Part shown: positions 2,442 through 21,200 of the stretch, one piece after another | Position numbering within the stretch: position 1 is the stretch's first letter | Layout of the letters: every line of letters begins with the position of its first letter | From: Candidatus Limnocylindria bacterium | GTDB lineage: Bacteria > Chloroflexota > Limnocylindria > P2-11E | Direction of reading: 5' to 3' | DNA length: 64,000 nt | Assembly: GCA_041496945.1 (NCBI GenBank) | Contig: JBGQFO010000003.1 | Location: 16,415 to 80,414 of the forward strand | Position numbers and translations under genes: made by a program | The notes under the pieces: model-generated | Database searches by the model: none | The model's input: the letters and a program-made list of their open reading frames with translations, nothing else | Told to the model about the DNA's origin: nothing

Positions 2442-3095
2442 TTGGAAGATGTCCGCGCGGCGCTCGCGCACGTCCTGTGGATCGGCGGCGGTCCCCAAGC
2501 TGGAAAGACGACGCTCTCGCGCCTCCTCGCCGGCACATGGGACCTCAAGATCTACAACCTCGACTCGCACCCCGTTCGCGATCACGAGCCTCGGCCGAGA
2601 CCAGCGGTGGCCGCGTTCCGGCGTCTGTCGATGGACGAGCGGTGGGCATTGCCAGATGCCGAGCATCTCCTCCACCGGTCGATCGCGATCTGGGAGGAGG
2701 ACTTCAGGCTCGTCCTCGACGACCTGCTGGCCCTTCCTCGAACACGCACGATCGTCGCCGAGGGTCCGGGCGCACTCCCGTGGTGCGTCGGACCGGTCAT
2801 CGGCTCGCCGCACCAGGCGCTGTTCCTCGTCCCGACAAGCGAGCGACGTGACGTCGTGGCGGCGCGGCGGTGGGGCAACGGTCAGGTCGAGCGCTTCCCC
2901 GGGATCGTCGACCGAGAGCGCGCGCTCGCGAACGTCCGTCAGCGCGACGTCCTCCTCGATGAGCGGATCCTCGCGTCATGTGCCGAGCTCGGTCTGCGCT
3001 GCGAGCAGGTCGATGGCTCACGCGATCTCGACGACAGCGTCGCGTTGCTGGAGGACCATTTCCGCCCTTACCTGCCCGCGACACCGAACGTCTAG
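2442..3095 (+). CDS. P-loop NTPase / kinase-like protein
   Basis: Walker A motif WIGGGPQAGKTTLSRLL near the N-terminus; 217 aa. Its start lies only 11 bp from the divergent ALS-like start. Confidence 0.7.
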   Translation: MEDVRAALAHVLWIGGGPQAGKTTLSRLLAGTWDLKIYNLDSHPVRDHEPRPRPAVAAFRRLSMDERWALPDAEHLLHRSIAIWEEDFRLVLDDLLALPRTRTIVAEGPGALPWCVGPVIGSPHQALFLVPTSERRDVVAARRWGNGQVERFPGIVDRERALANVRQRDVLLDERILASCAELGLRCEQVDGSRDLDDSVALLEDHFRPYLPATPNV

Positions 3096-3262
3096 CCGCT
3101 GGCCGAGATCGACGCCTCCGCGTTCACCGGCGCGAGGAAGACGCGAGGCATCTCGGTCCGCCGCACGAGGACCGCAAGCACGAGCAGGACCACGAGCAGC
3201 AACAGACCGAACGACATCGCGCGGCGACGGCGCCAGCGGCGGACGCGCCAGCCGGGCAGCAT
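3092..3262 (-). CDS. Possible small single-pass membrane protein (56 aa)
   Basis: Not in the ORF track (under 60 aa). ATG 3262 lies 2 nt after the aldehyde dehydrogenase stop. Translation MLPGWRVRRWRRRRAMSFGLLLLVVLLVLAVLVRRTEMPRVFLAPVNAEASISASG has an Arg-rich N-terminus followed by one hydrophobic helix. Third codon positions are GC-rich. Confidence 0.3.
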   Translation of the reverse strand: MLPGWRVRRWRRRRAMSFGLLLLVVLLVLAVLVRRTEMPRVFLAPVNAEASISASG

Positions 3263-6885: not shown

Positions 6886-7632
6886 ATGCCCCGTTCGAAA
6901 CACCGCGCCCGCACGCGCCCGCAGCCCCGCCCCGACCACGGCCCGGCGGTCCAGCAGCGCGCGCGCCGTGGACGCTTCTCGCCGGCGCAGCTCGCCGGTG
7001 TATCCGTCCTCGCCGTCATCGGCGTGGTCGCGCTCATCGGGTTCGGCGTCGTCAGCGCGCAGGTGCCGGCGACCACGCTCCCCACGGCGACGGCGTCGAC
7101 GCCCGGGATCACCCAGAGCGGGCACGCGCGGGGCCAGGCGAGCGCGCCGGTGACGATCGAGGAATGGGCGGACTTCCAGTGCCCGGCCTGCGGTCAGTTC
7201 GCGCGGATCGTCGCGCCCACGCTGCTCTCGACATACGTGGCGAAGGGCCAGGTCGCGCTCGTGTTCCACCACATGGCCTTCCTCGGCCAGGAATCGAGCT
7301 GGGCGGCCGAGGCGGCTGAGTGCGCGGGCGAGCAGGGCAAGTTCTTCGAATACCACGACAAGCTCTTCAGCTCGCAGGCCGGCGAGAACCGCGGCGCTTT
7401 CTCTAAGGACAACCTCAAGCGCTTCGGCACCGACATCGGCCTCGCGCCATCGTTCGCCGCCTGCGTCGACTCGGGCAAGTATGCGCAGGCGGTCCGTGAC
7501 GACACGAAGCTCGGCGAGGGCCGCGGCGTGACCGCGACGCCGACGCTGTTCGTCAACGGGCGCAAGATCGAGGGCGTGCCCTCGTTCGACCAGCTGAAGG
7601 CGATCATCGATCCGCTGCTGGTCGGGCGATAG
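6886..7632 (+). CDS. DsbA-family thiol:disulfide oxidoreductase, membrane anchored
   Basis: Track ORF 6802..7632, with start placed at internal ATG 6886. N-terminal TM segment LAGVSVLAVIGVVALIGFGVV. Thioredoxin-fold CxxC motif WADFQCPACGQF. Confidence 0.85.
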   Translation: MPRSKHRARTRPQPRPDHGPAVQQRARRGRFSPAQLAGVSVLAVIGVVALIGFGVVSAQVPATTLPTATASTPGITQSGHARGQASAPVTIEEWADFQCPACGQFARIVAPTLLSTYVAKGQVALVFHHMAFLGQESSWAAEAAECAGEQGKFFEYHDKLFSSQAGENRGAFSKDNLKRFGTDIGLAPSFAACVDSGKYAQAVRDDTKLGEGRGVTATPTLFVNGRKIEGVPSFDQLKAIIDPLLVGR

Positions 7633-7634
7633 GC

Positions 7635-8051
7635 CTGACCGCGCGCCGCGTCGCCGCCGCCGTCGCGGCCATCGGCACCGCGGTCTCCGCCTATCTGACC
7701 TGGGTGCACTACTCCGGCTCGCTGGCGCTCTGCATCGGCGTCGGCGGCTGCGAGGCCGTGCAGACGAGCCGCTTCGCGATGCTCGGCGACATCCCGGTCG
7801 CGCTCATGGGCCTGGCTGGGTTCGCGCTCATCCTGCTCGTCGCGATCGCTCGACTGCGGTCCGATCGCCCGGAACTGGATCTCGCGCTCTTCGCGCTCTC
7901 GCTTGCCGCAACGCTCTACGTGACGTACCTGAGCTACGTCGAGGTGTTCGTGCTCGGCGCGATCTGCCCCTGGTGCGTGAGCGTCGCGATCTGCGCGGTC
8001 GCGGTCTTCAGCCTTGCCGCGCGCGAGGTCTTCCGCTCCGCGCCATCCTGA
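7635..8051 (+). CDS. Vitamin K epoxide reductase (VKOR) family protein
   Basis: Track ORF 7704..8051 contains the loop Cys pair CIGVGGC and the CPWC active site. The first TM helix (LTARRVAAAVAAIGTAVSAYLTW) is in frame upstream of the first canonical start, so the start is tentatively set at in-frame CTG 7635. Confidence 0.8.
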   Translation: MTARRVAAAVAAIGTAVSAYLTWVHYSGSLALCIGVGGCEAVQTSRFAMLGDIPVALMGLAGFALILLVAIARLRSDRPELDLALFALSLAATLYVTYLSYVEVFVLGAICPWCVSVAICAVAVFSLAAREVFRSAPS

Positions 8052-12615: not shown

Positions 12616-14286
12616 CTATTCGAGGTAGTCCTTGAGCTTGCGGCTGCGCGAGGGGTGCCGCAGCTTGCGCAGCGCCTTCGCCTCGATCTGGCGGATGCGC
12701 TCGCGCGTGACGTTGAACTCGCGACCGACCTCCTCGAGGGTGCGCGTCCGCCCGTCCTCGAGACCGAACCGCAGCTGGAGGACGCGGCGCTCGCGGAGGG
12801 TGAGCCCCTCGAGCACGCTCTCCACCTGCTCTTTGAGCAGCTTGTGGCTCGCCGCATCGGAAGGCGCGAGCGCCTGGGTGTCGGGGATGAAGTCCCCGAG
12901 GTGGCTGTCCTCTTCCTCACCGATGGGCGTCTCGAGCGAGACCGGCTCCAGCGAGACCATGAGGATCTCGCGGACCTTGTCCGGCGTGACGAGCATCCGC
13001 TCGGCGATCTCCTCCGCGGTCGCCTCGCGGCCGAGCTCCTGGAGCAGACCGCGCGAGACGCGGATGAGCTTGTTGATCGTCTCGACCATGTGCACGGGGA
13101 TCCGGATGGTCCGCGCCTGGTCGGCGATGGCGCGGGTGATCGCCTGGCGGATCCACCACGTCGCGTACGTCGAGAACTTGTAGCCCTTGCGGTAGTCGAA
13201 CTTCTCGACGGCGCGGATGAGGCCGATGTTGCCCTCCTGGATGAGATCGAGGAAGGACATGCCACGGCCGATGTACTTCTTCGCGATCGACACGACCAGC
13301 CGGAGGTTCGCCTCGGTCAGGTTGTGCCGCGCGTCGTCACCCTTCTGGATGAGCTCGTCGGCCAGGCGGCGCAGCCCGCGCTGCTCGTCGGCGTCGGACA
13401 CGACCAGCTGGTCCAGGTGCTTGACCAGGATGTCGCGGACCTCCTGGCCGAGCATGACGAGCTCCCCCAGGCGCTCGGCGCCCTCGGCCGGACCGTGGAT
13501 CTTCGCGTACTGCGGCAGGATGCGGAAGGCCAGACGCTCGGCGTCGCGACGCGCGGCATCGATGAGGGCGACGGTCTCGTCGATGAGCACCTTCGCCTCG
13601 GTCGAGATCTCCTTGCTGTTCGCCTCCGCCTGGAGCGGGTCGCGCAGCTTGAGCAGCCGGTTGGAGACACGGCGAAGGTCCTTGCCGCCGATCTCGTCGT
13701 TGAGCGTGTGGCGCAGCGACTTCAGCGTGAAGCGCGTCGCCTCGTCGACGAACTCCTTGGGACGGCCGACGGCCATGCGCTTCTTCGTCTCGACCCCGAG
13801 CTCGTACAGGTGGATCGCCGAGAGCGCGGGCGACACGAGCGCCTGTTCCCCAAGCTCGATCGACTTCGCGAGGTTGACCTCTTCCTCGGCGGTGAGGAGC
13901 GGGACCTTGCCGATCTCCTTGAGGTACATGCGGACCGGGTCGTCGACGCTGATGAGGTCGCTGGCGAGGACCGCCGAGATGGCGTCCTCGCGCTGCATCT
14001 CCTCGGCCTCTTCCTCTTCCTCCTTGACCTGGGCCCAGTTCGGGCCACGCTCGGCCTCGAGGATCTCGACGTTGTTGTCGTCGAGCGCGAGGAGAAGCTC
14101 TTCGACCTCGCCCGGCTCGGCGTCGGGCATCGCGCGGACGATGTCCTCCTGGGTGACGTACCCCTGCTGCCGACCGCGCGCGAGGAGACGCTCGGCCTGC
14201 TCCTTGTGCTCCGGGTGGATTCCCGTGCGCTCCGGCGCGGCCGCGGCCTTGTCGTCCTTGTCCTTTGTCGCCTTCAGTGTCTTCAT
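12616..14286 (-). CDS. rpoD: RNA polymerase primary sigma factor (sigma-70 family, RpoD/SigA)
   Basis: 556 aa. Regions 2-4 are unmistakable: [53 protein letters not shown] and [22 protein letters not shown]. Confidence 0.97.
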
Positions 14287-16127
14287 TCGCTCTCTTTTCG
14301 TTCGCTGTCGCCGTGCAGCACCGTCCGCCGTTCGACCCGTGCCATGGCGAGCTCGAGCTCACCCCCCAGGCGCTCGACCTCGGCCGCCAGTGCGCTCGCG
14401 TCGCCGCCCGTCGCCTGCGCGAGCTGTGCCCGCGCCTCGCCCAGACGGTCCCGCAGGGTCTGCACCCGTAGGCGCCTCGCGGCGATCTCGATCACCTGCA
14501 CCGGGTCCGCCTCCTCGCCGAGCTCCGGCGCTATCGCGCCAAGTGCGGCTGCCGTGGCAGCCAAGTGAGCCGGCAGATCGGATGACGGACGCTGCCCCGA
14601 CTGCAGGAATTTCAAGAGCTCACGCAGCTCGGGGGTGACGAGGTCGGCGGCGATGAGGTCGGCGCGCGCGGTCTCCTCCGGGTATCGCGTCAATAGTGCC
14701 ATGACGTAACGCTCCTGAAGCGGCGTTTGTTTCATTTCCGGGCCATCTCCCGGCTCGGCTGCGGTGGTGGGCACCGCGGCCGGCGCGGCCCGGCCCACCG
14801 TTGGCAGGGCGGGAGCTGCCTCGACCCGCTGGCGGACGAGGGCCGGGTCGACGCCGGTGCTCCCGGCGACGGCCGAGATGTAGACGTCGCGCCGGACCGG
14901 GTCCGGCTCGGCGCGCAGCACCGGTGCGACCTCGTCGAGGAAGCGCAGGCGGCCCTCGGGCCGCTCGAGCTGGTGGCGCTCGCGGATCTGGTCGATGAGG
15001 AACTCGAGCAGGCTCTTCGCCCCGGCGATGAGCGAGCGGAGCTTCTCCGGATCGGAGCGGGCGAGGTCGTCAGGGTCCAGGCCCTCCGGCAGGACGGTGA
15101 CGTAGAGCGTCCCGTAGCCACGCGTGCCCACCTGGCCCGAGCCGGCTCGACCGCTGTGCCGCTGCAGGAGCGGGAGCAGGTCGTGCCCGCGCCGCTCCGC
15201 GGAACGCTGGCCGGCGGGATCGCCGTCGAAGGCCACGACGACGCGCTCGAGCTTCATGTCCTGGAGCACGAGGTACTGGTCCACGGTCAGGGCGGTGCCC
15301 ATCGATGCGACGACGTTGGCGATGCCCGCCTGATGTGCCGCGATCGCGTCGAAGTACCCCTCGACGATGACCGCCGTGCTCTCCCTGCGGATCTCCGCAC
15401 GGGCCGCGTCGAGCGCATAGAGCGTCGCGCTCTTGTTGAAGAGGGGTGTGTTCGGCGAGTTCACGTACTTCCCGGGCTGGTCGGCGCGCATCGCCCGCCC
15501 GCCGAAGGCGATGTTCCGGCCGCGGCCGTCGCGGATCGGCACCATGAGCCGGCCGCGGAACCAGTCGTACACGCCGCGGTCGCCGGCGCGCAGGACGCCG
15601 GCGATCTGACCCTCCTCCTCGGAGAAGCTCTTCTTCTTCAGATACGTGAGGAGCCCATCCCAGAGGTCGGGCGCGTAGCCCAGCCCGAAGCTGTCGATGG
15701 ACGCCTGGGTGATGCCGCGTTTCGCGAGATAGGCGGCGGCGACCTTGCCGTGGGTCGGCGATCGCAGCGCCTGCGTGAAGTAGAAGAGCGCCGTGTCCAT
15801 CAGGCTGCGGAGGCGGTCGTCGCGCTCCTGCGCTTCGGGCGAGCGCCGCGTCAGCTGGACGCCGGCGCGCTCGGCCAGGACTTTCAGCGCTTCCACCGGC
15901 TCGAGGTTCTCCATCTTCTCGAGCCACGTGAAGACGTCCCCGTGCTCGGAACATCCGAAGCAGTGATAGGTGCGCCTCTCCGGATCGACCTGGAACGAGG
16001 GCGTCTTCTCGACATGGAACGGGCAGAGGCCCTTGTAGACCTTGCCGGCGCGCTTGAGCGGCACGCGCTCACCGATGAGCGCGACGATGTCGATGCGCTC
16101 CTTGACGAGGTCGAAATCACCCGGCAT
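14283..16127 (-). CDS. dnaG: DNA primase
   Basis: 614 aa. CHC2 zinc finger [25 protein letters not shown] and a TOPRIM region ([11 protein letters not shown]). 4-nt overlap with the rpoD start. Confidence 0.97.
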
Positions 16128-16378
16128 CAGCGGTAAGCCTCACTACGATGTCTGACCGTCTCGATGATCACAGTTCTTGCTCGAGCGTCGAATCGGTAGA
16201 TGACACGGTAGACGCCGACCCGAAGTGAGCGCAGATGAGCGAGGCTTCCCTTGAGGGGCTTTCCTCGAAGTGGCTCGTCAGCAAGGCTGACGATCAGGTC
16301 GTCCACAGCGCTCCGGTATGTAGCAGCAAGCCGGCTCAGGTCGCGCTCCGCCTCGCGCGCGAGAAGGACGCGTGCCAG
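16127..16378 (-). CDS. relE: Type II toxin, RelE/ParE family
   Basis: Translated by hand: (L)ARVLLAREAERDLSRLAATYRSAVDDLIVSLADEPLRGKPLKGSLAHLRSLRVGVYRVIYRFDARARTVIIETVRHRSEAYR. The RelE-type C-terminus (YRVIY...V.HR...Y) is present. It is absent from the track because no ATG/GTG/TTG precedes the conserved N-terminus. The start is assumed to be CTG 16378, two codons after the antitoxin TAG. The stop TGA shares one base with the dnaG ATG. Confidence 0.8.
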   Translation of the reverse strand: MARVLLAREAERDLSRLAATYRSAVDDLIVSLADEPLRGKPLKGSLAHLRSLRVGVYRVIYRFDARARTVIIETVRHRSEAYR

Positions 16379-16381
16379 CGG

Positions 16382-16648
16382 CTAACGCCTCGGCCGGGCG
16401 CGGACCTCGGCCCAGCTTCGGACGCGGCCAGCCTTGATGTCGCGTTCAGCTCGGGCGATCGCGGCCATCGCCTTCTTGTCGGCCATGATCTCGAGGGTTT
16501 CCTGCCAGCTCTCGAACTCAGCGGCTGACATGACGACAGCTTCGGGCTTGCCCTGCTTCGTGATGACCACGTGTTCGTGCACCGAGGACACCTCATCGAT
16601 GATCCGCGACAGGTCCTTGCGGGCTTCCGTGAGCGGGAGCGTCTTCAT
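16382..16648 (-). CDS. yefM: Type II antitoxin, Phd/YefM family
   Basis: 88 aa. MKTLPLTEARKDLSRIIDEVSSVHEHVVITKQGKPEAVVMSAAEFESWQETLEI is a classic Phd/YefM N-terminal domain. Confidence 0.9.
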   Translation of the reverse strand: MKTLPLTEARKDLSRIIDEVSSVHEHVVITKQGKPEAVVMSAAEFESWQETLEIMADKKAMAAIARAERDIKAGRVRSWAEVRARPRR

Positions 16649-16656
16649 TGGCAGAG

Positions 16657-16674
16657 TGTACAGGATTCTGTACA
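16657..16674 (-). promoter_or_regulatory. Putative antitoxin operator: two TGTACA palindromes, 12 bp centre to centre
   Basis: TGTACA at 16657-16662 and at 16669-16674, separated by GGATTC, inside the 37-bp gap between the dgt stop and the yefM start. The proximal copy overlaps a TACACT -10-like hexamer 6 nt before the ATG. TGTACA cores with 12-bp spacing are the known YefM-type operator architecture. Confidence 0.55.
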
Positions 16675-16685
16675 GATCGGCGTTC

Positions 16686-17774
16686 TCAGAGCGTGCCCCA
16701 AGCCGACGGGATGAACAGGCTCGTGTACGTGTCGAGCGCGTACCGGTCGGTCATGCCAGCGATGTAGTCCGCCACCGCGCGCTTTGTCCCGTCGCGCTCC
16801 GCGATCTTCTGGTGCTCGGCAGGCATGCGGTCGGGATGCTCCTCGAAGTACTGGAGCAGCTCCCAGAGGACGCCCTGGGCCTTCTCGTCCTCGGTCTTTG
16901 CCGGGCCCGCGAGATACACGTTCTTGAACATGAACTGGCGCAGCGCGTTGCTGGCCTCGAGCACCTCGTCGCTCATCGTCACCCCCGGCTTGCCGTACGA
17001 CGTCGCGACGACGTCGTAGATCATCGTGTCGAGCCGCTCGGCGCGATCGCGGCCGAGCAGGATCCGGAGCTCGATCGGGATGTCCGCTTCGGTGATGATG
17101 CCCGCGCGCATCGCGTCGTCGATGTCGTGGTGCAAATAGGCGATCTTGTCGGCGTAGCGCACCACCCAGCCCTCGGGGGTCTCCGGCTCGCCCCAGGACG
17201 CGGTCTCCATGCCGCCGTCGGTCGGGGCGCTGTGCTTCAGGATCCCATCGAGCGTCTCGTGCGTGAGGTTCAGGCCCTTGCCGTTCTTCTCCAGCTTCTC
17301 GGCGATGCGCACGCTCTGCTCGTTGTGCCGGAAGCCGTCGGGGAGGAATTTCGCGAGCAGCTCCTCCCCCACGTGGCCGAAGGGCGTGTGCCCGATGTCG
17401 TGGCCGAGCGCCATCGCTTCCACCAGGTCTTCATTGAGACGCAGCGACCGCGCCATCGAGCGGCCGATCTGGCTCACCTCGAGGATGTGCGTGAGACGCG
17501 TGCGGTAGTGATCCCCGACCGGCGCGAGAAAGACCTGGGTCTTGTGCTTCGTGCGCCGGAAGGCCTTGCTGTGGACGATGCGATCGCGGTCGACGGCGAA
17601 GCTCGTCCGCGTCGGCGACGGCTCCTCCGGGCGCGCGCGCTTCGCGGTCGCGCTCTTCGTGGCGTGCGCCGCGAGATCCTTGGCCTCGAGCTCCTCGTTG
17701 TGCTCGCGGATGCGCAGCGATGCGACGCTCTTCGTCCGCGACAGGTTCGCCTCGCGCTCGGTCCCGGCCGCCAT
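16686..17774 (-). CDS. dgt: dGTP triphosphohydrolase-like HD-domain protein
   Basis: Track ORF 16686..18149, with start at internal ATG 17774. Contains FAVDRDRIVHSKAFRRTKHKTQVF...RLTHILEVSQI...LGHDIGHTPFGH. Confidence 0.9.
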   Translation of the reverse strand: MAAGTEREANLSRTKSVASLRIREHNEELEAKDLAAHATKSATAKRARPEEPSPTRTSFAVDRDRIVHSKAFRRTKHKTQVFLAPVGDHYRTRLTHILEVSQIGRSMARSLRLNEDLVEAMALGHDIGHTPFGHVGEELLAKFLPDGFRHNEQSVRIAEKLEKNGKGLNLTHETLDGILKHSAPTDGGMETASWGEPETPEGWVVRYADKIAYLHHDIDDAMRAGIITEADIPIELRILLGRDRAERLDTMIYDVVATSYGKPGVTMSDEVLEASNALRQFMFKNVYLAGPAKTEDEKAQGVLWELLQYFEEHPDRMPAEHQKIAERDGTKRAVADYIAGMTDRYALDTYTSLFIPSAWGTL

Positions 17775-17785
17775 CGACAACAAGC

Positions 17786-18448
17786 CTAAGGCGAGCGCGT
17801 CGGACCCGGTGAAGCGCCCAGGTGGCGCTCGAGGAACGCCCGCGTCCGGTCCCACGCCAGATCGCTCGCGGCCCTGTCGAACTCCGGTCGCGACGGCTCG
17901 TCGAACCAGTGCTTCGTCCCTGGGTAAAGCTCGACGCGCACGTCGTTCCCGGCCGCCCTCAGCTCCTTCTCGACCTGGCGCGCGAAGTTGATGTCCTCGA
18001 ACTCGTCGTGCTCCGCGTAGTGGGCCAGGACCGGCGTCGTGGGCGCGTCCGGCTCGTTCGGGCCGATGCCATAGAAGAGGGTGAGGGCACGCACCTTGTC
18101 GGGATGCGCGATGCCCATCTTCCACGCGTACCAGACCCCGAAGCTCCATGCGACGATGCCGACGCGGTCGACCTTCTGTCCCAGATCGAGCACGGCCTCC
18201 TCGACCATCTTCGTCAGCCCCGCCTCATTCTCGTGCTCGCTCTTGGTCAGCGCCTTCGCCTCATCGATCGTCGACGCGACGCGGCCGCCAAAGAGGTCGG
18301 GCGTCACGACCTCGTAGCCCTCCGCCCGCAGTCGCTCGGCGCGCGCGAGCACATCCGCGTTGAGACCCCACCAGGCGTGGAGCAGGATCAGTCCCGCGCG
18401 CTTCGCGGTGACCATCAGTTGTCCTGCTCCTGGTGACCTATCGGTCAC
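17786..18448 (-). CDS. Dienelactone hydrolase family protein
   Basis: 220 aa alpha/beta hydrolase (LILLHAWWGLN...GIVAWSFG...). GTG 18448 overlaps the ppdK end by 11 nt. ATG 18415 is an alternative start. Confidence 0.85.
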   Translation of the reverse strand: MTDRSPGAGQLMVTAKRAGLILLHAWWGLNADVLARAERLRAEGYEVVTPDLFGGRVASTIDEAKALTKSEHENEAGLTKMVEEAVLDLGQKVDRVGIVAWSFGVWYAWKMGIAHPDKVRALTLFYGIGPNEPDAPTTPVLAHYAEHDEFEDINFARQVEKELRAAGNDVRVELYPGTKHWFDEPSRPEFDRAASDLAWDRTRAFLERHLGASPGPTRSP

Positions 18449-21200
18449 GCTCTCCGCCGGCGAGCGCCGCCTGCGCCGCGGCGAGACGCGCGACCGGAAC
18501 GCGGTACGTCGACGGTGACACGTAGGTGAGGCCGAGCTCGTGACAGAGCGCGATCGACGAAGGATCGCCGCCGTGCTCGCCGCAGATGCCGATCTTCAGG
18601 TCTTTACGCGTCTTGCGGCCCTTCTCGATCGAGATGCGCATCATCGCGCCGACGCCGTCGCGGTCCAGGACCTGGAACGGGTCAGAGGGGATGATCTTCT
18701 TCTCGACGTACTGGGTGAGGAAGCTCTTCTGCGCATCGTCCCGACTGATGCCGAGGATCGTCTGGGTGAGGTCGTTCGTGCCGAACGAGAAGAACTCGGC
18801 CTTCGTCGCGATCTCGTCGGAGATGAGGCAGGCGCGCGGGATCTCGATCATCGTCCCGAACTTGTACGGCACCTTCTTACCGCGCTCCGTGAAGACGGTC
18901 TGCGCGACGGCGGTGACCTGCTCATAGAGGCGATCGAGCTCCCCCATCGTGCCGACGAGCGGCATCATGATCTCCGGCTTCGCCTTGACGCCCTTCTCGG
19001 AGACGTCGATGGCCGCGCCGAGGATGGCGCGTATCTGCATCTCGAGGATCTCGGGGTAGACGAGCAGCAGGCGGCAGCCGCGCAGCCCGAGCATCGGGTT
19101 GTCCTCGGTGATCTGCTCGAGCCGCTTCCAGATCTTCTCCTTGCGGGCGATCTCCGCGGGGTCCTTGCCGGTCGCCTTGTCCACGGCGATCTCGACGTCG
19201 AGGTCGTGGTACTCGCGGAGGAACTCGTGGAGGGGCGGGTCGATGAGGCGGATGACGACCGAGAGACCGTCCATCGCCGTGTACATCTCACGGAAGTCGC
19301 CCTGCTGGAACGGCAGGAGCTTGGCGAGCGCCTTCTTCCGGCCCTCGGTGTCGTCGGCCATGATCATGTCCTGCACGATCGGCAGCCGTTCGGCCTGCCG
19401 GAACATGTGCTCGGTGCGCGCCAGGCCGACGCCCTCGGCGCCGAGCTCGCGCGCGAGGCGGCACTCCTCCGGCGTATCGGCGTTCACCCACACGCCGAGG
19501 CGCCGGCGCTTGTCGGCCCATGAGAGGAGCTCGATGAGCTCCTTCTCCTCGCGAAAGTTCGGCTGGATCGTCGGCAGCTGGCCAGCGAAGACCTCGCCGC
19601 TGGTGCCGTCGATCGAGATCGAGTCGCCTTCCCTGATGACCCTGCCGGCGACGCGCATCTCGCGCTTTGCGAGATCGATGTCCAGCGCGCCGACGCCTGA
19701 GACGCACGGCAGCCCGAGGCCGCGCGCCACCACCGCGGCGTGCGAGGTCGATCCGCCGCGCGCGGTCAGGATGCCGGTCGCGGCGACCATGCCGTGGAAG
19801 TCGTCGGGGCTCGTCTCGGGGCGCACGAGCACGACGAGCTGCTTCGCTCCCTTCAGCTCGACCGCGCGGTCCGCGTCGAACACCGCGCGGCCGGTGGCCG
19901 CGCCGGGCGACGCGTTGAGGCCCTTCGCGAGGAAGCGTCCCTCCCTGCGCGCCTTCTCCACTTCCTTCTCGTCGAAGCGCGGGAGGAGCAGCTGCTCGAC
20001 CTGCATCGGGTCGACGCGGCCGATGGCCTCGTCCTTGGTGATGAGGCCCTCGCGCACCATGTCCGTCGCGATCTTCACCGCGGCGCGCGCCGTGCGCTTC
20101 GCGCTGCGCGTCTGGAGCATGAACAGCGTGCCGCGCTCGATCGTGAACTCGAGGTCCTGCGCGTCGCGGTAGTGCTTCTCGAGACGCTGCGCGATCTTCT
20201 CGAACTGCGCGTAGACCTTCGGCATCTCGGTCCGGAGCTGCGCGATCTTCGACGGTGTGCGGATGCCGGCGACGACGTCCTCGCCCTGGGCGTTCACGAG
20301 GTACTCGCCGTAGAGCTCCTTCGTGCCGGTGTTCGGGTCGCGCGTGAACGCGACGCCCGTCCCTGAGTCGTCCCCCATGTTCCCGAAGACCATGGTCACG
20401 ACGCTCACGGCGGTCCCGAGGTCGTGGCGGATCTTGAACTGATTGCGGTAGTCCACCGCCCGCTTCCCGAACCACGAGTTGAACACCGCCTCGATCGCGA
20501 GACGCAGCTGATCGCGGGGTTCGGTCGGAAATGGCTTGCGCGTCTCGCGCTGCACGATGGCCTTGTACTCGTCGACGAGACCTAGGAGCGCGTCGGGCCG
20601 CAGGTCGGCGTCGGTCTTCGCGCCGGTGGCCTTCTTTCTTGCCTCGAGCGCATGCTCGAACTTCTCACCGGCGATGCCGAGGACGATGCGCCCGAACATC
20701 GAGACGAAGCGCCGATACGCGTCCCAAGCGAAGCGGGGGTTCTGCGTGAGCTTCTCGAGGCCCGCGCGCGTCTCGTCGTTGAGGCCGAGGTTGAGGACGG
20801 TGTCCATCATCCCGGGCATCGACATCGCGGCACCCGAACGCACCGAGACGAGGAGCGGGTTCGACGCGTCGCCGAGCCGCTTGCCCGCCGCCTTCTCGAC
20901 CGCCGCGAGGGCCTTCTCCGCCTGATCCCAGAGACCCGGCGGCAGCTTCTTGTTCGCCGCGAAGTAGGCGTTGCAGGCCTCGGTGGTGATGGTGAAGCCG
21001 GGCGGGACAGGGAGTCGGGCGTTGGTCATCTCCGCCAGGCCAGCGCCCTTGCCACCGAGGAGCGCGCGCATGCCCGCGTTGCCTTCCGCCTTGCCGTTCA
21101 CGAAGAGGTAGACCCACTTCTTCCTCGCGCCCGATCTCGATCGAGCCGTAAAGCGGCGAGCGGCGGTCGCGGTCTTGCGGCGTGCGGGCATGGCGGGCAC
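18438..21200 (-). CDS. ppdK: Pyruvate, phosphate dikinase
   Basis: 920 aa. Contains KKWVYLF...LLGGKGAGLAEM, the phosphohistidine region GGSTSHAAVVARG, and the PEP-utilising C-terminal domain. About 27 basic residues precede the usual N-terminus. Confidence 0.96.
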   Translation of the reverse strand: MPAMPARRKTATAARRFTARSRSGARKKWVYLFVNGKAEGNAGMRALLGGKGAGLAEMTNARLPVPPGFTITTEACNAYFAANKKLPPGLWDQAEKALAAVEKAAGKRLGDASNPLLVSVRSGAAMSMPGMMDTVLNLGLNDETRAGLEKLTQNPRFAWDAYRRFVSMFGRIVLGIAGEKFEHALEARKKATGAKTDADLRPDALLGLVDEYKAIVQRETRKPFPTEPRDQLRLAIEAVFNSWFGKRAVDYRNQFKIRHDLGTAVSVVTMVFGNMGDDSGTGVAFTRDPNTGTKELYGEYLVNAQGEDVVAGIRTPSKIAQLRTEMPKVYAQFEKIAQRLEKHYRDAQDLEFTIERGTLFMLQTRSAKRTARAAVKIATDMVREGLITKDEAIGRVDPMQVEQLLLPRFDEKEVEKARREGRFLAKGLNASPGAATGRAVFDADRAVELKGAKQLVVLVRPETSPDDFHGMVAATGILTARGGSTSHAAVVARGLGLPCVSGVGALDIDLAKREMRVAGRVIREGDSISIDGTSGEVFAGQLPTIQPNFREEKELIELLSWADKRRRLGVWVNADTPEECRLARELGAEGVGLARTEHMFRQAERLPIVQDMIMADDTEGRKKALAKLLPFQQGDFREMYTAMDGLSVVIRLIDPPLHEFLREYHDLDVEIAVDKATGKDPAEIARKEKIWKRLEQITEDNPMLGLRGCRLLLVYPEILEMQIRAILGAAIDVSEKGVKAKPEIMMPLVGTMGELDRLYEQVTAVAQTVFTERGKKVPYKFGTMIEIPRACLISDEIATKAEFFSFGTNDLTQTILGISRDDAQKSFLTQYVEKKIIPSDPFQVLDRDGVGAMMRISIEKGRKTRKDLKIGICGEHGGDPSSIALCHELGLTYVSPSTYRVPVARLAAAQAALAGGERDR

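Follow-up and report, generated by a model that had tools for sequence, protein, structure and literature searches.

A YefM-RelE toxin-antitoxin cassette at the dgt-dnaG junction of a Candidatus Limnocylindria bacterium

Why does a toxin-antitoxin (TA) pair stand immediately ahead of the genes for DNA primase and a sigma-70 factor, and is it a newcomer there? The question is raised by a 64,000-nt stretch of DNA (the window) from a Candidatus Limnocylindria bacterium (GCA_041496945.1, contig JBGQFO010000003.1, positions 16,415-80,414 of the forward strand). The assembly is a metagenome-assembled genome (MAG) of 2.2 Mb and 80% completeness, labelled G000 in our comparisons. The whole locus lies on the minus strand and reads in one direction: ppdK, a dienelactone-hydrolase-like gene (dlh), dgt, a 37-bp spacer, the antitoxin gene yefM, the toxin gene relE, dnaG and rpoD. 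A first-pass annotation had recognized a Phd/YefM-RelE pair between dgt and dnaG, and its gene identities and coordinates hold (Pfam PhdYeFM_antitox, E 6.5e-22; PF05016, E 1.1e-12). Its actinomycetal frame for the junction was wrong, the host belonging to the Chloroflexota, class Ca. Limnocylindria. We consider it probable that the pair is a functional, autoregulated type II cassette, consisting of a YefM/Phd antitoxin and a RelE-type ribosome-dependent mRNA endonuclease, that has long been resident at the dgt-dnaG junction of one Ca. Limnocylindria family of uncultured soil bacteria.

The dgt-dnaG junction and its occupants

Relatives were compared through a genus survey of 26 genomes and a family census of 92 genomes in nine genera, and GTDB genomes and JGI metagenomes were scanned by pattern. 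Within the genus, the order ppdK-(dlh)-dgt, variable slot, dnaG-rpoD is conserved, and dnaG and rpoD are adjacent in all relatives examined. The slot holds yefM-relE in G000, G002 and G003, a MEDS-HisKA-HATPase-REC hybrid kinase gene in ten genomes of the genus, genes for an MBL-fold hydrolase and a large membrane protein in G021 and G005, and ABC transporter genes in the sister family (G025 and G026). It is empty in G013, G015, G017 and G024, where a spacer of 33-48 bp, free of TA remnants and bearing its own Shine-Dalgarno sequence, separates dgt from dnaG. Where other cargo is present, 69-78 bp lie between the upstream gene and dnaG. The junction is thus a cargo hotspot. Slot cargo of relatives was seen at L068:1983-3917 and L074:3212-3964 and on L056, L061, L069 and L070. 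The dnaG gene of G005 (L074:4214-5266), like its equivalent in G019 (L073), also carries an in-frame insert of about 350 residues after residue 59 (zinc-ribbon domain); the insert matches Hint and LAGLIDADG domains, which makes it an intein in primase, and is missing from dnaG of the window.

How widely is the cassette itself distributed? Strong toxin matches occur in 12 of the 92 family genomes, spread over four of the nine genera, and all lie in the context dgt-yefM-relE-dnaG-rpoD. The same arrangement is found on at least eight further metagenome contigs. Identity to the window in cassette-bearing loci goes down to 75% for Dgt and to 50-57% for DnaG, so that these loci are nearly as far away as the sister family, with 67-74% and 50-52%. 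The cassette is therefore old and long resident at this junction in one family. On a tree of Dgt, DnaG, RpoD and PpdK the three TA-bearing genomes of the genus do not form a clade, and G013, whose slot is empty, is the closest relative of the window genome. A search of the empty junctions for TA remnants found none, and their spacers of 33-48 bp show no relation to the cassette; gain and loss can therefore not be polarized from scars.

The first-pass annotation had described the module as AT-richer than its flanks and enriched in codons rare in neighboring genes, and windowed GC and codon counts bear out this description. The 559-bp module region has a GC content of 0.624, compared with 0.694 +/- 0.030 for same-size windows across the 64 kb, which places it at the 1.1st percentile. 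GC at third codon positions (GC3) is 0.64 in relE and 0.84 in yefM, against 0.87-0.94 in five neighboring genes. The codons AGA, AGT, ACT, CAT, CTT and GCT account for 22 of 171 codons in the module and 25 of 2668 in the neighbors (odds ratio 15.6, p = 1.5e-15). The further step, from composition to recent horizontal acquisition, fails, since the same cassette occupies the same site in four genera with a low relE GC3 in nearly all of its loci (0.69-0.85, below the 0.83-0.98 of flanking genes). Because the bias recurs across the relatives, composition does not mark a recent acquisition, and low GC and rare codons are, on this comparison, a standing property of relE. Such features in a toxin gene can be stable and possibly selected, and need not be a mark of recent transfer. 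The annotation had added that its reading would fall if the same module, with native composition, sat at the same site in all relatives. The comparison goes most of the way to that outcome, the module being at the same site in relatives, but not the whole way, as the composition is non-native everywhere and most relatives have no cassette.

The allele types and their exchange

If the cassette is an old resident, has it been inherited with its flanks? A tree of YefM and RelE divides into two types, type I with CTG at the relE start position throughout (support 96/94) and type II with GTG throughout (support 96/92). Placed on a tree of Dgt, DnaG and RpoD from the same loci, the type labels need 7 changes, no better than the mean of 7.3 for shuffled labels, and well-supported sister hosts differ in type (L075/L183, L130/L140, and L078 versus L108/L184). 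An approximately unbiased test rejects type II as a single host clade (p = 4e-60, for a group named after the trees had been seen). Inside each type, the deep split of the TA tree tracks the deep split of the hosts. Both types therefore seem older than that host split, with exchange mostly between closer relatives.

A comparison of the window with contig L132 places one such exchange on the map. Nucleotide identity is 92-97% in dnaG, with a synonymous divergence (dS) of 0.32; in 60-nt windows it is 60-75% in relE (65% overall) and 62-85% in the available part of yefM (74% overall), with a dS of about 1.9 for each. The drop lies at 16128/16129, the relE/dnaG boundary. So sharp a jump shows that alleles have been exchanged by recombination, here an allele replacement by homologous recombination with its breakpoint at that boundary. 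Simple vertical inheritance with losses was rejected, as the types conflict with the host tree and the dS of the TA genes is about six times that of the adjoining dnaG. Horizontal movement is real, but it moves alleles among relatives at a fixed site and does not insert the cassette afresh. The cassette would persist by addiction, and would spread or be replaced through homologous recombination in which the conserved essential flanks serve as homology arms.

The nearest toxin homologs outside the class are mostly from Solirubrobacterales and other Actinomycetota, with 35-48% identity. In two Solirubrobacterales MAGs (L109 and L119; about 1090-1816 and 2723-3249) a sigma-70 family gene is followed, after about 0.9 kb, by a homologous yefM-relE pair, an arrangement that may be coincidence.

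Toxin, antitoxin, operator and start codon

Do the two genes look like a working pair? The antitoxin scores 77.5 bits against PF02604 (cut-off 29.8) and 55.4 bits against TIGR01552 (cut-off 20.8), which places it in the family, and yefM precedes relE, the antitoxin-first order demanded of Phd/YefM modules. It is not a YefM-YoeB equivalog by NF008499 (29.3 bits, cut-off 121), and its partner is RelE-like. The toxin matches PF05016 over profile positions 1-89 of 89 (48.8 bits, cut-off 23), as a member of the superfamily should, and stays under the cut-off of TIGR02385 RelE_StbE (24 bits, cut-off 27.9). Its best PDB sequence matches are Rv2866 (RelG) and RelE of Mycobacterium tuberculosis. An AlphaFold2 model of the toxin, based on 20 orthologs, has a predicted local distance difference test (pLDDT) value of 93.7. 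In a Foldseek search with this model, M. tuberculosis RelE1 and RelE2 came out on top at a template-modeling (TM) score of 0.85-0.88. RelE of Thermus thermophilus, Escherichia coli and archaea followed, and ParE structures ranked lower. TM scores of 0.78-0.88 across the top matches (M. tuberculosis RelE1 and RelE2, T. thermophilus RelE and E. coli RelE) place the toxin in the small alpha/beta RelE fold.

Residues R58, R76-H77-R78 and Y82 of the toxin are invariant in the 20 orthologs and align with the catalytic segment HR...YR of M. tuberculosis RelG and RelE. We take these conserved basic and aromatic C-terminal residues to be the equivalents of R61, R81 and Y87 of E. coli RelE; by sequence the catalytic residues are of the RelE and not the ParE type. 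An identity as ParE, a gyrase poison, is disfavored by the structural ranking, which RelE proteins head, and by the invariance of these RelE-type residues at the C-terminus. Fold and catalytic residues are thus intact in the model and the alignment. Ratios of nonsynonymous to synonymous divergence (dN/dS) against orthologs are 0.10-0.43 for relE and 0.07-0.37 for yefM, so that both genes evolve under purifying selection. Within the CTG clade the ratio for relE is 0.10-0.19, with saturated dS, which argues that RelE protein is still made. The C-terminus of the antitoxin and the toxin types co-evolve, and an operator is present; these are the sequence prerequisites of a type II system. Elsewhere in the genome there is at least one further RelE-family paralog, with 44% identity, at C19:7762-8013 (L002), unlinked to dnaG, and weaker matches lie on C171 and C2.

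The operator noticed in the first reading was retested with the same result. The motif TGTACA-N6-TGTACA in the dgt-yefM spacer is the sole copy in the window and did not occur in 100 shuffles; 17 of the 18 related loci have it within a few bases of the dgt stop. Experiments on E. coli YefM-YoeB have defined its operator as a pair of TGTACA cores spaced 12 bp apart, a pattern also seen ahead of many yefM genes (PMC1802561); the boxes here have this spacing and position, and protein binding to them is predicted. In 17 loci the proximal box runs into TACA[ACG]T, a -10-like element ending 6-10 nt before the antitoxin start, and no Shine-Dalgarno sequence precedes that start in these loci. We infer that the yefM transcript is leaderless or nearly so and that the repressor blocks its promoter. 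YefM, joined by RelE as co-repressor, would bind the paired boxes overlapping the -10 element, and a leaderless yefM-relE-dnaG-rpoD transcript would begin at this promoter.

Where does the toxin begin? No ATG, GTG or TTG is available to start full-length relE; the frame opens at a CTG one codon past the yefM TAG, an observation of the first reading that agrees with our retest. Among 20 dnaG-linked loci the codon at this position is CTG in 11, GTG in 8 and ATG in 1, with CTG in all 11 type-I loci and GTG in eight type-II loci. The aligned codon in outgroup homologs is GTG, ATG or TTG in 33 of 36 cases, often in the same stop-N3-start layout. Seven other conserved leucine columns in the 11 type-I loci use three to five codons each, with CTG making up about 30%. 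Because the start codons of outgroups and of dnaG-linked loci align here, and because CTG is invariant unlike the codons for other leucines, these alignments show the CTG position to be the true toxin start. The yefM stop lies 3-6 nt upstream of the relE start in some alleles, and the two codons overlap as CTGCCTAG in others.

Initiation at CUG reaches about 1-2% of that at AUG in E. coli (bioRxiv 10.1101/063800). Ribosomes that finish yefM would re-initiate inefficiently at the CTG, 3 nt further on, and the rare codons would slow relE translation further, so that RelE would be made in very small amounts, below those of the antitoxin. We found no literature report of a conserved CTG-initiated toxin, within an incomplete coverage of the literature. 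The first sequence reading had noted a second gene, at 7629-7706 of the window, for which a CTG 3 nt past the upstream stop is the only possible start, and relE and this gene hint that CTG re-initiation may be wider in the lineage. The relE alignments offer comparative evidence that a near-cognate CTG can be maintained as a bacterial start codon in a translationally coupled gene.

Coupling to primase, rival explanations and known systems

How closely is the cassette tied to primase? In all 20 loci the end of relE abuts or overlaps the start of dnaG, as TGATG or TAGTG with a 1-nt overlap, as an 11-nt overlap in which the toxin is three residues longer, or, in G003, with a 3-nt gap. The first-pass annotation had read a base shared by relE and dnaG in the window, and a 4-nt overlap of dnaG and rpoD. 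Both are in the sequence, the former being the A common to TGA and ATG and the latter the ATGA at 14283-14286. A GAGG element precedes the dnaG start by 9-10 nt in related loci and is supplied by conserved Glu-Ala codons of the toxin. The coding strand at the locus had no terminator-like site in our scan, the only such hairpin being on the non-coding strand. As had been proposed, the module and dnaG-rpoD are physically linked. The junction is tight in every related locus, too short to hold a terminator, and this coupling is conserved. The rpoD-type product, with regions 1.1-4, is presumably the primary sigma factor. The literature, again incompletely covered, yielded no description of a dnaG-rpoD operon that contains a TA pair.

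Does translation of primase then require that of the toxin? A dependence forced by sequestering the dnaG ribosome-binding site in secondary structure was rejected, as RNA across the junction has less structure than shuffled controls (z = +2.0). The dnaG gene can probably also be initiated from its own Shine-Dalgarno sequence, and read-through from dgt into the downstream genes is likely because the upstream genes are co-directional and closely spaced. The yefM promoter, initiation at CTG and co-transcription of dnaG are all predictions from sequence. On these, dnaG would be translated both from the GAGG inside relE and by coupling, and the cassette would place primase and sigma expression partly under TA control, in addition to dgt read-through. 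Because the toxin gene carries the ribosome-binding site of primase and runs into its start codon, the locus could show directly whether essential genes draw on a TA promoter. Coordinates are collected in Table 1.

Table 1. Features of the locus, in window coordinates
Feature	Position	Strand	Basis
ppdK	18438-21200	-	
dienelactone-hydrolase-like gene (dlh)	17786-18448	-	
dgt-like HD-domain triphosphohydrolase gene, upstream flank of the junction	16686-17762	-	Pfam HD and HD_assoc
dgt-yefM spacer, 37 bp, predicted TA promoter/operator	16649-16685	-	paired TGTACA motif
paired TGTACA palindromes, 12 bp center to center, predicted YefM-type operator	16657-16674	-	
candidate -10 hexamer TACACT, overlapping the proximal palindrome, ending 6 nt 5' of the yefM ATG	16655-16660	-	
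yefM/phd antitoxin gene, 88 aa, ATG start, TAG stop 16382-16384	16382-16648	-	PF02604, TIGR01552
relE CTG initiation codon (inferred), one codon past the yefM stop, same frame	16376-16378	-	
relE toxin gene, 83 aa from CTG, TGA stop 16127-16129	16127-16378	-	PF05016
GAGG Shine-Dalgarno for dnaG inside relE Glu-Ala codons, 10 nt 5' of the dnaG ATG	16138-16141	-	read from sequence
dnaG primase gene, ATG 16125-16127	14283-16127	-	Pfam Zn_ribbon_DnaG, DNAG_N, Toprim, DnaB_bind
rpoD-type sigma-70 gene, full-length, regions 1.1-4	12616-14286	-	Pfam

Several findings weigh against a functional resident cassette that feeds its neighbors. A scan for consensus sigma-70 promoters found none at the locus, although such a scan is uninformative for Chloroflexota promoters, and no -35 element is conserved among the related loci. 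The unstructured Shine-Dalgarno region means that dnaG need not depend on relE translation. Most genomes of the family have no cassette, and in some of them a bare spacer of 33-48 bp carries a Shine-Dalgarno sequence of its own; the cassette can therefore be lost and is dispensable for dnaG-rpoD expression, which argues against an indispensable regulatory role. In G002 (L076/L031) the paired TGTACA operator is missing and GCG stands where others have the antitoxin ATG or GTG, both open reading frames being intact; this copy reflects either early decay or an assembly error, and its losses indicate that decay does occur.

What else could the locus be? The cassette might have been domesticated, its promoter serving as a significant conditional promoter of dnaG-rpoD, so that antitoxin turnover under stress tunes primase and sigma while a CTG-limited toxin acts mainly as co-repressor. 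The tight junction in 20 of 20 loci, the dnaG Shine-Dalgarno sequence built into conserved toxin codons, the retention of the site over genus-level divergence and the precedent of mazEF upstream of sigB (PMC5308263) all speak for this. We nevertheless judge it unlikely, since the cassette is found in only 12 of 92 family genomes, close relatives have no cassette or unrelated cargo, and two deeply diverged alleles shuffled by recombination are not expected of a regulator that benefits its host. A bolder version is more doubtful still: two mutually non-neutralizing alleles held in a long-lived balanced dimorphism, with the leaderless promoter a real conditional driver of primase and sigma and CTG re-initiation holding RelE at co-repressor level. 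If it were true, the TA pair would be built into core gene expression and would be no passenger.

At the other extreme, the pair could be a silent or decaying remnant in which a GTG-to-CTG change abolished toxin translation, leaving the antitoxin and operator as relics and the dnaG coupling incidental. The toxin has no canonical start codon, CUG is a poor initiator, the G002 copy has decayed at its 5' end and loss is frequent among relatives. Against this, all 11 type-I loci keep CTG although their synonymous sites are saturated and their other leucine codons drift, dN/dS is low in the CTG clade, the catalytic residues are invariant, and the operator and yefM ATG are intact here; we consider such a remnant improbable. 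We give least credence to a recent insertion of a foreign module into the junction of this genome, as the first-pass annotation had it, which is contradicted as stated. Low GC, rare codons, the actinobacterial affinity of the nearest out-of-class homologs (Solirubrobacterales) and the empty site of G013 would all fit a newcomer. The cassette, its operator and its junction architecture nevertheless recur in four genera and on many metagenome contigs, the TA tree inside each type tracks the deep host split, relE GC3 is low across loci, and the outgroup homologs are just 35-48% identical. We therefore retain a functional cassette of long residence as the probable reading. The function of chromosomal type II TA pairs is disputed, and this slot, with essential flanks and four states in close relatives (empty, TA type I, TA type II and other cargo), offers a natural comparison.

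How does the locus compare with known systems? The best toxin matches are RelBE2 (Rv2865-Rv2866, RelF/RelG) and RelBE1 (Rv1247c-Rv1246c) of M. tuberculosis, with profile E values of 2.7e-14 and 5.9e-13, the TM scores given above and 35-42% identity. They are likewise small, two-gene, antitoxin-first modules. The mycobacterial pairs are free-standing loci that are not known to be joined to dnaG-rpoD, and we know of no CTG start or fixed-site allele dimorphism in them. In the macromolecular-synthesis operon of E. coli, rpsU-dnaG-rpoD, as here, dnaG and rpoD are adjacent and co-directional, and primase lies behind elements that would keep its expression low; unlike in E. coli, dgt and a variable slot (in the window the TA cassette) take the upstream place of rpsU, and dnaG and rpoD overlap by 4 nt.

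Two further systems resemble the locus in layout and control. In Staphylococcus and Listeria, the type II pair mazEF lies directly upstream of the sigB operon, immediately 5' of a sigma-factor operon as here, and is co-transcribed with it; the pair is of the MazEF family, the sigma factor is an alternative one, and the part of the source covered here reports no overlap of toxin and downstream gene (PMC5308263). By contrast, the genes downstream in the window encode primase and an RpoD-type sigma factor, and the toxin gene overlaps the dnaG start. E. coli YefM-YoeB has an antitoxin of the same Phd/YefM family and an operator of identical geometry, with two TGTACA cores 12 bp apart overlapping the promoter (PMC1802561). 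Unlike that system, the toxin here is RelE-like and not YoeB, and the promoter is apparently leaderless. The cassette is thus of a familiar kind but newly configured. It combines a fixed slot in an essential-gene cluster across a bacterial family, a toxin gene that overlaps the primase start and provides its ribosome-binding site, a maintained near-cognate start codon, and two ancient alleles shuffled by recombination.

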